A stretch of DNA of 5,483 nt from a virus (lineage: Duplodnaviria > Heunggongvirae > Uroviricota > Caudoviricetes). Within the stretch, counting starts at the first letter, position 1. Every line of letters starts with the position of its first letter. The stretch is taken from the IMG/VR virus record IMGVR_UViG_2671180846_000019. The stretch is one strand, 5' to 3'. Position numbers: made by a program. Positions 3,001 through 5,483 of the stretch are shown here, piece after piece.

Positions 3001-5483
3001 TTATTGTCTTCCTTTTTTTTGAATGGTGCGCGTATTTTACATACATGAGTTTGTAATACAAGGTGCGTAATCAATATGATGTTTTATAATTGCGTGAGAC
3101 AATTGATTTATTCGTTTTTTATTGCGGTTTTTATTATCTTTTAATGTAACGGTGTTTTTATTAAGTGTGTTTGCGTGGTGTTTTATGTTTTTTATAATTT
3201 TTATTTTATTAAATTTAAAAGCATTAGTAATGGCTATTCTATATAGCAATATAAGAACTGTTACAAAAAAAGGGGGGCAATTACAGGTAGTTATGGATGA
3301 TGAGTGAAACAGATATTGGAGAACCGGGGAATGAATGATGTCTGAGTCTTATATATCAGAACTCCTTCGCTGTCGCTGGGGGCTCCTGTGCTTATGTCGT
3401 TTCCCCGATTCGGTTTTGAACGATTACCGAATGTTGAAGAATTATGCCAAAATATAGAAAGGATTTACTGCATGAATACCCAATATTTACAGTATGTTCG
3501 TGAGCAACTTATGGCAGCTACTGCTGACTTGAACGGAGCAACGAAAGGCCAGCTCGAAGCCTGGCAGGAGCATGCACAATTTGATACTGGTACATACAAA
3601 CGAAAGAAGCCGCGCATTCTGGATGTGGTAACTGGCAAGATGATTACGCTGGATAATACGCCGACTTCCGGTAAGCAGTCGTACGCAAAAGGTTCATCCA
3701 TTGCTTTGGTCAGCCCGGTTGAATTCTCAACCTCTTCATGGCGCCGCGCGGTTTTGTCTCTCGATGAACATCAGAAAGCATGGTTGCTTTGGTGTTACAG
3801 CGAAAGCGTTCGATGGGGGCATCAGGTCACCATAACGCAATGGGCATGGAGCGAGTTTAAAGATTTGTTAAGTAACAGAAAAATTGCAGGTAAGACACTG
3901 GATCGCCTGAAGACGTTAATCTGGCTGGCTGCACAGGATGTGAAGAGCGAACTTGCAGGGCGTGAGGCCTATGAATACCAGACACTGGCATCATTGGTGG
4001 GAGTGACAACAAAAAACTGGTCCGAGACATTTACTGAACGCTGGGTTGCAATGAAGCACATTTTTCTACAGCTTGATAGTGATGCTTTATTGCTTGTGAC
4101 GAGAACACGTTCAAAACAAAAGGCAGCATTTTTACAGCAAAATATTGCAAAACTGGATTAAAAGCCATATACTTCATGCAAATTTGGTATGTTGTAAAAA
4201 ATGTATAAACCCGCTGCCGAGTGGGTTTTTTTTATGCCCTGAGTTGTACTTGTACGGTAAACATGCTGGCTGCTATGTAATAGAGTTTTTTTAGCCTGTA
4301 ACCTCTTGACGGCATTGAATTGCTTTTGTTATGAGTTGTAAGCCAATGTTATCATCTTGTATTGGGGTGGTTATGAAGGATGGTGCGCTGCTCAGGAGTT
4401 CTTCACTTTTTATTGCCTACATGGGATGCCTTGGATGGGGGAGTGCTTATTTCTATGGATGGGGTACTTCTTTTTACTACGGCTTCCCATGGTGGATTGT
4501 AGGTGCAGGTGTTGATGATGTTGCCAGAAGTTTATTTTTTGCAGTTATCGTCATTGCTATATTTCTTATCGGTTGGGGTATTGGTGTTGTATTCTTTTTC
4601 GCAGTGAAAAGAAAACATTCTATGCAAGAGCTAAATGTATTTCGCCTTTATTTTGCTGTGGAATTATTGTTTGTGCCGGCAATTATTGAGTTTTCTATAT
4701 TGAGACAGAAGATTCAGGTACCTCTTTTGCTACTGTCAGCAGCGATTGCGCTGGCGGTTACAATTTCGATAAGATCTTATGGGCGATTTTTATCGGTATC
4801 ATGCTTCTATGATAAGCCATTTATAAAAAAACATTTTTTTGAGATTGTGATGATTGCTTTTGTGGCATATTTCTGGCTTTTTTCATTTCTGACAGGATAT
4901 TACAAACCACAGTTTAAGAAAGAATATGAAATGATTAATTATAATGATGGTTGGTATTATGTTCTTGCTCGTTATGATAATTGTCTGGTTTTGTCTACTT
5001 CTTTCAATGCAGGTAGTAAAAGGTTTGTCATTTATCAATCAGCACAAGATAAGAATCTTCAGGTTGATATTGTAAGGACCAGAATTTAATTGGCTGCATA
5101 AATAATATTTTAAGTTGCAAGTTGGCTATTCGTAGGAATAGAACCTTAGGCATGCTGAATGCGTTTTCTGAACATTGTTTTATAAACTGTGTCTGCTTGC
5201 TGTTGTGATCCTGCTTTTAGTGATGGTGATGATGGATTTCACCAGCAGGATAATGTTGGTACTGACTGATGGCGCTCTGGTCTGCGGCATTGTGGTATTG
5301 CTGTGGCCGATGATGAAAGAACAGAATGAATAATTCTTGACTTTTTTGTTTACTGTTTATTAAAAAATCAACCGCATGGTGAATCCTCCTTGGAGGGGCT
5401 AAATGATCGAGTTTTAAGGGCACGTAGCGAGTTCTGTTTGATCATTGCAGAACTTAGCGGGAGGCGCCATGCGTACATCACTA

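Follow-up and report, generated by a model that had tools for sequence, protein, structure and literature searches.

Within IMG/VR virus record IMGVR_UViG_2671180846_000019, we analyzed a 5,483-nt stretch of DNA (hereafter the window) that corresponds to the nin-to-late region of a lambdoid prophage, as judged from its list of open reading frames (ORFs) and from Pfam and PHROG annotation. An intact ORF on the plus strand at 4331-5089, which an earlier note made from the sequence alone had described as an unrecognized multi-pass membrane protein, proved to be a gene that is already known, with an annotation in phage 434 and entries in Pfam, PHROGs and RefSeq as a member of the TfpB/STM1630 family. 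Our preferred reading, to which we assign a probability of roughly 45%, is that the gene is a lysogenic-conversion gene, or 'moron', whose product, a non-enzymatic protein of the inner membrane, acts on the carrier's envelope. The gene would be accessory and horizontally mobile, with lytic growth of the phage independent of it. Its product would be a five-helix inner-membrane protein with a cytoplasmic N-terminus, the aromatic/Gly-rich loop after the first transmembrane (TM) helix and a small beta domain both being exposed to the periplasm. Since the family has no polar residue that all members share, the protein most likely would work not by catalysis but by binding an envelope component in the periplasm or the outer leaflet, and this binding would alter the envelope of the carrier bacterium. 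In the prophage, the gene would be the first to be transcribed when the antiterminator Q lets RNA polymerase through the terminator tR', and a weak promoter of its own possibly travels with it.

One family of membrane proteins links the Shiga toxin (stx) slot of these prophages, the Shigella invasion plasmid, the heat-labile toxin (LT) plasmids of enterotoxigenic Escherichia coli (ETEC), the sseJ locus of Salmonella, toxin loci of Pasteurellaceae and the pilin switch of Moraxella. Pathogens keep the protein under purifying selection without a recognizable fold or catalytic residues, which makes it a reasonable target for focused study. The analysis adds a map of the family across pathogens and contexts, for which the literature searched gave no counterpart. 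It also corrects the start codon, supplies a structural model good enough to use, and infers a topology and a non-enzymatic role.

Identity, start codon and predicted structure

The ORF and the surrounding 1334 bp were 99.9-100% identical to phage 434 and to E. coli genomes, and the protein was 100% identical. The phage 434 gene is CPT_434_68 ('putative membrane protein', UMO75332.1), and its E. coli counterpart, encoded by chromosomes 100% identical in DNA, is WP_001302581.1 ('hypothetical protein'). Both are the same gene as the window ORF, differing only in the start, which is annotated at ATG 4346 while we favor ATG 4373. The same DNA is present in 682 complete E. coli genomes; about 13% of complete genomes carry this allele and about 22% carry some family member detectable at the DNA level. 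PHROG 1521 was matched by residues 31-252 over the whole 222-position profile (E=2.1e-154), and this and the other PHROGs matched, four in all, carry the label 'unknown function'. Homologues in a large protein database, including the cluster with the identical protein, are all tagged (precomputed) as PF27470, named TfpB in contig annotation tables, and the newest RefSeq records name identical DNA 'STM1630 family protein'. The earlier description of the gene as unrecognized thus does not hold: it is annotated in 434 and in hundreds of E. coli, and STM1630 has been deleted and assayed.

The accompanying statement that the protein resembles no holin, endolysin, Rz, Bor, Lom or other characterized family was borne out. 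No match was obtained against Pfam-A (in a copy that predates PF27470), NCBIfam or PADLOC, where PADLOC-DB gave 0 families at E<=1, and a sequence profile search of the PDB gave nothing below E=1.9. A permissive Pfam scan of 55 aligned members likewise returned no recurring weak match, the best being YqeB-like bPH in 2/55 (E=0.045). A literature search found nothing relevant on PF27470, WP_001302581 or TfpB in Shigella.

Membership in the TfpB/STM1630 family is supported by the full-length profile match, by homology to both name-givers and by a shared architecture. Aligned along all 238 aa, the protein shares 46% identity (E=1e-70) with P0074, which is STM1630 by its length, its locus and a published deletion primer encoding NSSMLLAYLGGLGWG. 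P0135, the representative of a Moraxella-type cluster, was recovered in the profile search at E=4e-18, and by eye the Moraxella loci are a close match to its N-terminus; these loci were confirmed by tblastn with query P0110 and are located in the pilin inversion region. The five hydrophobic segments, the aromatic/Gly motif and the beta domain could be aligned in all subgroups. The family is small, with 72 profile matches (~20 of them full-length) among 1.84 billion cluster representatives, and is limited to Enterobacterales, Pasteurellaceae, Moraxella and one metagenome-assembled genome (MAG) from Neisseriaceae. A first tier at 45-100% identity comprises E. coli, Shigella, Citrobacter, Cronobacter, Klebsiella, Salmonella and Yersinia; a second, at 23-30%, comprises Pasteurellaceae, Moraxella and the Neisseriaceae MAG; and a third contains the more distant enterics Mangrovibacter, Enterobacter and Klebsiella aerogenes.

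The two name-givers resemble the window gene to different degrees. STM1630 (SL1344_1560), the founding member of the 'STM1630 family protein' group, has the same length and architecture, is AT-rich and horizontally acquired, and adjoins virulence genes. However, STM1630 is a fixed chromosomal gene with its own mapped promoter (~200 nt upstream, L003 ~5755-5824) and expression of the Salmonella pathogenicity island 2 (SPI-2) type, whereas the window gene lies in a prophage late operon behind Q/tR'. TfpB of Moraxella bovis and Moraxella lacunata has in common the motif AY-x-YGWG...YGYPWW, an IARSL helix, the five hydrophobic segments and a YYIL beta domain. Its identity is only ~23-27%, and it is set between pilin segments beside the recombinase gene piv, a linkage not seen in E. 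coli. We take this Moraxella pilin-region ORF to be the source of the Pfam name TfpB.

Three in-frame ATGs could begin the protein, at 4331 (252 aa), 4346 (247 aa; the start annotated in RefSeq and in the phage 434 record) and 4373 (238 aa, beginning MKDG). Because full-length homologues, with few exceptions, have 237-238 aa and can be aligned from MKDG/MNDN, the position of ATG 4373, and because the ATGs at 4331 and 4346 are not kept in other genomic contexts, the true start is almost certainly ATG 4373, which would give a coding sequence at 4373-5089 (plus strand; 238 aa and stop) on the evidence of PHROG 1521, homologue starts and dN/dS, the ratio of nonsynonymous to synonymous substitution rates. 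A G-rich, Shine-Dalgarno-like run read from the sequence (GGGGTGG, 4364-4370, plus strand) lies just 5' of this codon. The ORF itself is present as the earlier note described it. Seven alleles from seven genomic contexts were all intact, with dN/dS of 0.13-0.21, which places the ORF far beyond chance and identifies it, at the level of sequence comparison, as a translated gene under purifying selection. The low G+C remarked on in the earlier note was also evident, at 36% for the ORF (30% at third codon positions) versus 45-53% in the nin region.

We modeled the protein with AlphaFold. A model built from enteric sequences alone had a mean predicted local distance difference test (pLDDT) score of 59, too poor to use, and a Foldseek search of the PDB with it gave only noise, including MscS-like rows with E~1 and TM-score <0.2; no relative of the protein was found by fold. 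Inclusion of the distant-tier sequences along with the enteric ones gave a pLDDT of 77.8 and a predicted TM-score (pTM) of 0.71. This model has five TM helices at residues 10-36, 47-79, 84-111, 116-137 and 155-181, in agreement with the roughly five hydrophobic helices noted earlier, followed by beta strands at 184-190, 193-201, 204-208, 219-222 and 231-235. What had been taken for a polar C-terminal tail of about 60 aa is thus, in the model, a folded five-stranded domain spanning residues 184-235. On the plus strand, TM1 and the aromatic/Gly-rich loop 1 (residues 37-46), with the motif AYxYGWG...YYGFPWW from the model and alignments, are encoded by 4400-4510; TM2-TM5, with K/R-rich loops 2 and 4 that would be cytoplasmic, by 4511-4915; and the C-terminal beta domain (residues 182-238) by 4916-5086. 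The aromatic/Gly motif quoted in the earlier note, GWGSAYFYGWGTSFYYGFPWW, was found in the ORF.

Across 55 diverse members, the density of K/R was 0.27 in loop 2, 0.18 in loop 4, 0.13 at the N-terminus and 0.05 in loop 1. Given five helices and this positive-inside bias, the N-terminus is predicted to be cytoplasmic, with loop 1 and the C-terminal domain periplasmic. A conserved pair of cysteines in the C-terminal domain of the P0116 subgroup of cluster representatives (2-3 Cys in 4 members; nearest loci Pasteurellaceae, by eye) would be compatible with a periplasmic disulfide. Conservation is highest in TM1 and loop 1 and lowest in the region from TM3 through loop 3 to TM4. Only A15, A25, Y26, G37, P39, G175 and Y195 are near-invariant in the 55 members, and because no polar or charged residue is invariant, an enzymatic role for the family appears unlikely.

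Late-operon position and regulatory signals

The ORF heads the operon of a Q82-type late antiterminator (3472-4161, plus strand; Pfam Phage_antiter_Q E=1.7e-91, with matching RefSeq and 434 annotations) and starts 170 nt past the stop of the antiterminator gene. Between the two lies the intrinsic terminator tR' (4207-4235, plus strand), a 9-bp stem and T-run detected by terminator scan and annotated as a terminator in OL657226 (5061-5086 of that record, window 4210-4235). The ORF list, the terminator and the Pfam assignment together confirm the placement of the ORF as the first gene after a Q-like gene and its leader. A candidate late promoter pR' (TTGCAA-17-TATACT, 4145-4173, plus strand), found by consensus scan, would overlap the end of Q, a position that agrees with the Q82-type layout annotated in phage 434. 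Given this layout, Q-modified RNA polymerase would read through tR' and, since the ORF is the first gene after tR', the ORF would be transcribed once Q antiterminates.

Stx phages carry stx in the slot after Q/tR'. As the earlier note had proposed, the ORF occupies the same position, between Q/tR' and the esterase and lysis genes in the layout of 434, where it is followed by a TciB-like gene, a gene for a small membrane protein, a SASA/NanS-type esterase gene, and then pinholin, signal-anchor-release (SAR) endolysin and spanin genes. The logic is that of stx, bor and lom, which are likewise non-essential, AT-rich cargo of the late region. These differ from the ORF in sequence and fold, and their products, a secreted toxin and outer-membrane proteins, act beyond the inner membrane. 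Other envelope or virulence morons of the same prophage are lpxR, in the window, and a gene for an Iss/Bor-like lipoprotein, in 434.

Evidence on dispensability comes from 434B, a viable, clear-plaque derivative of 434 in which DLP12 DNA replaces a stretch of ~5.5 kb that takes in Q, the late promoter and the lysis region (PMC9119081). The region of non-homology in 434B covers the target gene. Because 434B lacks the gene yet forms plaques, the gene is dispensable for lytic growth and counts as accessory cargo. This dispensability, seen also in the presence of the gene in only two distinct phages (434 and 2B8, in three records) among 50,697 records, and the distinct base composition are features of a moron.

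A membrane protein that heads the late operon upstream of the lysis genes might instead be a component of lysis timing, such as a holin or antiholin, an explanation we regard as very improbable. Phage 434 already has a complete cassette ~2.9 kb downstream of the ORF (class II pinholin, SAR endolysin and spanins), most family members are found outside phages, and the gene is missing from 434B, though the whole lysis region of 434B also was swapped. The protein also is far larger than holins: its 238 aa and five TM helices compare with the usual <150 aa and 1-4 TM helices encoded beside an endolysin gene, and the pinholin and SAR endolysin genes are separate. It was thus rejected as a holin.

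Upstream of the start, we noted a conserved CTTGACG-N-TGTTATGAG block (4305-4335, plus strand) that is a candidate promoter or regulator site specific to the gene. Its -35-like hexamer (4306-4311) is separated from a -10-like TATGAG (4330-4335) by an 18-nt spacer that has TG at its end (4327-4328), and the first in-frame ATG (4331) falls inside the -10-like element. The block, as CTTGAC-N17-TGTTA, lies 40-65 nt 5' of the start and is kept in four contexts unrelated to one another, namely this prophage, plasmids of ETEC, another prophage whose Q differs and an island carrying pap, with equivalents at loci L007, L043, L044 and L045. Its conservation in unrelated contexts, two of the four without Q upstream, suggests a promoter or regulator site that may travel with the gene. 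The block fails the strict -10 rule of the promoter scan, which gave a second weak candidate at 4326-4355. Expression of the ORF in the lysogen from its own promoter is possible, as the earlier note had also considered.

Genomic contexts and candidate functions

A comparison of conservation and neighborhood, as called for in the earlier note, revealed, beyond the low dN/dS values, seven kinds of context with no conserved neighbor: everywhere the gene stands alone and is AT-rich, with a GC of 30-40% across all contexts. It lies directly after Q in three types of prophage: the 434 type, one in Yersinia whose Q belongs to a different family, and one in E. coli that has yet another Q. In this last prophage, also lambdoid and found in E. 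coli 88-3493 (L045), the order is Q, the family member, a DNA methyltransferase gene, tRNA-Ile, tRNA-Arg and a TolA-like gene, on a skeleton that is Stx-phage-like without stx. On the Shigella virulence plasmid pINV the gene is found in 106 plasmid records, one of which already labels it 'TfpB protein', and on pWR100 it lies between virA and spa40. On ETEC plasmids (L007-L011, L043) it is divergent from eltAB. On E. coli islands one copy adjoins pap, and a pseudogene copy is next to iro and a tRNA-Arg gene. The latter, in UTI89 (L046), is a frameshifted remnant followed by tRNA-Arg and adjoining the iro (salmochelin) cluster, an arrangement that suggests a fossil phage late region within a pathogenicity island.

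Among Pasteurellaceae, the gene adjoins cdtABC in Glaesserella parasuis (L028) and an RTX operon in Mesocricetibacter (L022); in other members it occupies varied housekeeping sites, with two loci in several genomes and two sites in common between two Aggregatibacter strains. In Salmonella, STM1630 lies between steB and sseJ (L003), and the sseJ locus was the site in all three S. enterica records examined, two of which are subsp. arizonae and diarizonae. In Moraxella, the gene is inside the pilin inversion segment, beside the gene for the IS110-type recombinase Piv, and all five loci are beside or between pilin segments. The two contigs of M. lacunata NCTC10359 (L019, L020) represent both orientations of the pilin segment; tfpB is directly 3' of a complete pilin gene in one and convergent with the pilin gene in the other. 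The copies in M. lacunata and M. equi (L024) are frameshift-split (195-197 aa and 68 aa), and the M. bovis copy (L015) is intact.

The company kept by the family (lpxR, the Iss/Bor-like lipoprotein, toxins, effectors and pilins) and the SPI-2-type regulation of STM1630 agree with our reading of the protein as an envelope-acting moron product. The recurrent adjacency to toxin and effector genes (eltAB, cdtABC, RTX, sseJ/steB) may be functional, or may reflect only shared AT-rich mobile DNA.

The same distribution bears on whether the protein could serve, as the earlier note suggested, in superinfection exclusion or another anti-phage function, blocking DNA entry or aborting infection by other phages. 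Several superinfection exclusion proteins are inner-membrane proteins with conserved elements that face the periplasm, a likeness that counts for this explanation, as do the moron position in a temperate phage, the fact that phages, plasmids and islands carry it as a lone, mobile and AT-rich gene, the variability of TM3-TM4 and the linkage in Moraxella to type IV pilin, a common phage receptor. However, PADLOC gave no match and the matching PHROGs lack a functional label; the gene was present in only the two phages named above; it has fixed chromosomal sites in Pasteurellaceae and at the Salmonella sseJ locus; and STM1630 is induced by SPI-2 conditions rather than constitutive. In addition, because the window gene lies behind tR', it would be transcribed mainly on induction, when exclusion matters least. 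We consider an exclusion function, which the results neither favor nor refute, a minority possibility, though the most plausible of the alternatives; the distribution of the family suits a part in host-associated envelope biology no less well than one in phage defense.

The Moraxella loci also raise the question of whether the protein assists type IV pilin-like systems, be they pili, competence pseudopili or type II pseudopilins, as an accessory factor that binds membrane pilins before assembly. All five of these loci are pilin-associated, one orientation placing the gene directly 3' of an expressed pilin gene; to our knowledge, type IV pilin systems are present in every taxon in which the family occurs; and the gene adjoins eltAB, whose product leaves by the type II system, which would provide a further, indirect link. 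TfpY/TfpZ/FimB-like proteins of Pseudomonas aeruginosa and Dichelobacter nodosus offer a precedent, being likewise ~235-245 aa with N-terminal TM helices and a periplasmic C-terminal domain, and pilin-adjacent in some species; TfpY/FimB-type accessory proteins are proposed to be non-enzymatic and to bind membrane-embedded pilins before assembly (PMC11841053). As described in that study, which reports no link to Moraxella TfpB, TfpY-like proteins have three TM helices and a larger alpha/beta domain, in contrast to the five TM helices and ~55-aa beta domain of the ORF product (PMC11841053). Membership in the TfpY/FimB group was rejected on this architecture, and no pilin gene was near the ORF in the window or in the E. 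coli contexts. Since no pilin or secretion gene is adjacent in enterics or Pasteurellaceae either, and the M. lacunata and M. equi copies are frameshifted, we think a role in pilin assembly unlikely.

A protein that crosses the inner membrane several times, is encoded by a lone gene on mobile elements, shows no catalytic signature and is limited to a few host-associated lineages also could be an orphan immunity protein whose target is a membrane-active bacteriocin or a contact-dependent toxin of mucosal Gammaproteobacteria, and the gene next to the ORF bears a 'colicin resistance' label, by name only. Yet a matching toxin gene was never adjacent in the contexts examined, no known family of colicin or microcin immunity proteins resembles it, and SPI-2-type regulation of STM1630 would not be expected of an immunity gene. 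We judge this explanation improbable, though less so than a part in lysis.

Published experiments bear on the Salmonella member, STM1630 (717 bp). In PMC6785131, STM1630 is stated to be H-NS-bound and of unknown function and is expressed in SPI-2-inducing medium and in macrophages; two single-nucleotide polymorphisms in its -10 box silence it in all invasive sequence type 313 (ST313) isolates tested. The same study describes increased intramacrophage replication upon deletion of STM1630 in strain 4/74 and attenuation in calves and chicks in an earlier signature-tagged screen (PMC6785131). A transcriptome study of regulator mutants places STM1630 in a SPI-2 co-regulated cluster. A role for STM1630 in motility was rejected, the hypermotility seen in a high-throughput screen not having been reproduced with clean deletions.

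Several observations weigh against the reading we prefer. Deletion of STM1630 gave no growth defect in PMC6785131, and the effects seen in STM1630 mutants are either mild or have failed to be reproduced. The role proposed for the E. coli/434 protein would extend to it by comparison. The predicted periplasmic orientation derives from the charge rule and the Cys pair of one subgroup, the candidate promoter of the gene has a poor -10 element, no terminator was detected after the ORF by the scan, and the adjacency to toxin and effector genes may be nothing other than shared residence in AT-rich mobile DNA.

A broader proposal, which we hold more tentatively than the moron reading, is that the family constitutes a new class of mobile, single-gene envelope modulator in mucosal pathogens. 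Moving among phages, virulence plasmids and islands, such proteins might use the aromatic loop and beta domain exposed to the periplasm to engage a conserved envelope machine, for example pilin-type assembly or the route of phage DNA entry. They would then provide a new mechanism of superinfection exclusion or a new virulence tuner that travels with toxins (stx slot, eltAB, cdt, RTX, sseJ, pINV). If the protein is indeed an exclusion factor or a modulator of envelope or virulence, it would be of relevance to many important pathogens at once.

Other features of the window

Directly 3' of the target ORF is a gene for a DUF3927/TciB-like small membrane protein (5175-5333, plus strand; Pfam DUF3927 E=3.4e-14, PHROG 1470), whose product is 52 aa with two helices. 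It bears, by name only, the label 'inhibition of cell division or resistance to colicin'. This gene neighbors the target ORF in the 434-type arrangement only; a two-gene module of the pair was rejected, the DUF3927 gene being missing in all other contexts of the family. The end of the window (5390-5483) falls inside 434 gene CPT_434_70, a small 'putative membrane protein' with a TTG start at 5390, in place of which RefSeq has a minus-strand pseudogene.

Upstream of Q, the window encodes a Rha/KilAC antirepressor (369-992), YbcO (992-1282), RusA (1279-1641), NinH (1638-1826), the lipid A 3'-O-deacylase LpxR (2038-2997, minus strand) and a YlcG-like ORF (3335-3457). Rfam and tRNA scans of the window were both empty. 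The lpxR gene of enterohemorrhagic E. coli (EHEC) has been described as an immune-evasion factor controlled by Pch/Ler. In the window, lpxR and the YlcG-like ORF are part of an AT-rich insert (~1822-3472, GC as low as 27%) between NinH and the Q82-type Q. The insert is preceded by a remnant of the N-terminus of a lambda-type Q (~1822-1893), annotated in 434 and RefSeq, and the two together indicate that the whole Q/late-leader module was swapped. Finally, a run of 50 N at 866-915 lies within the antirepressor ORF; the gene is 723 bp in NZ_CP101292 versus 624 bp in the window, and the run stands for ~149 nt of real sequence.

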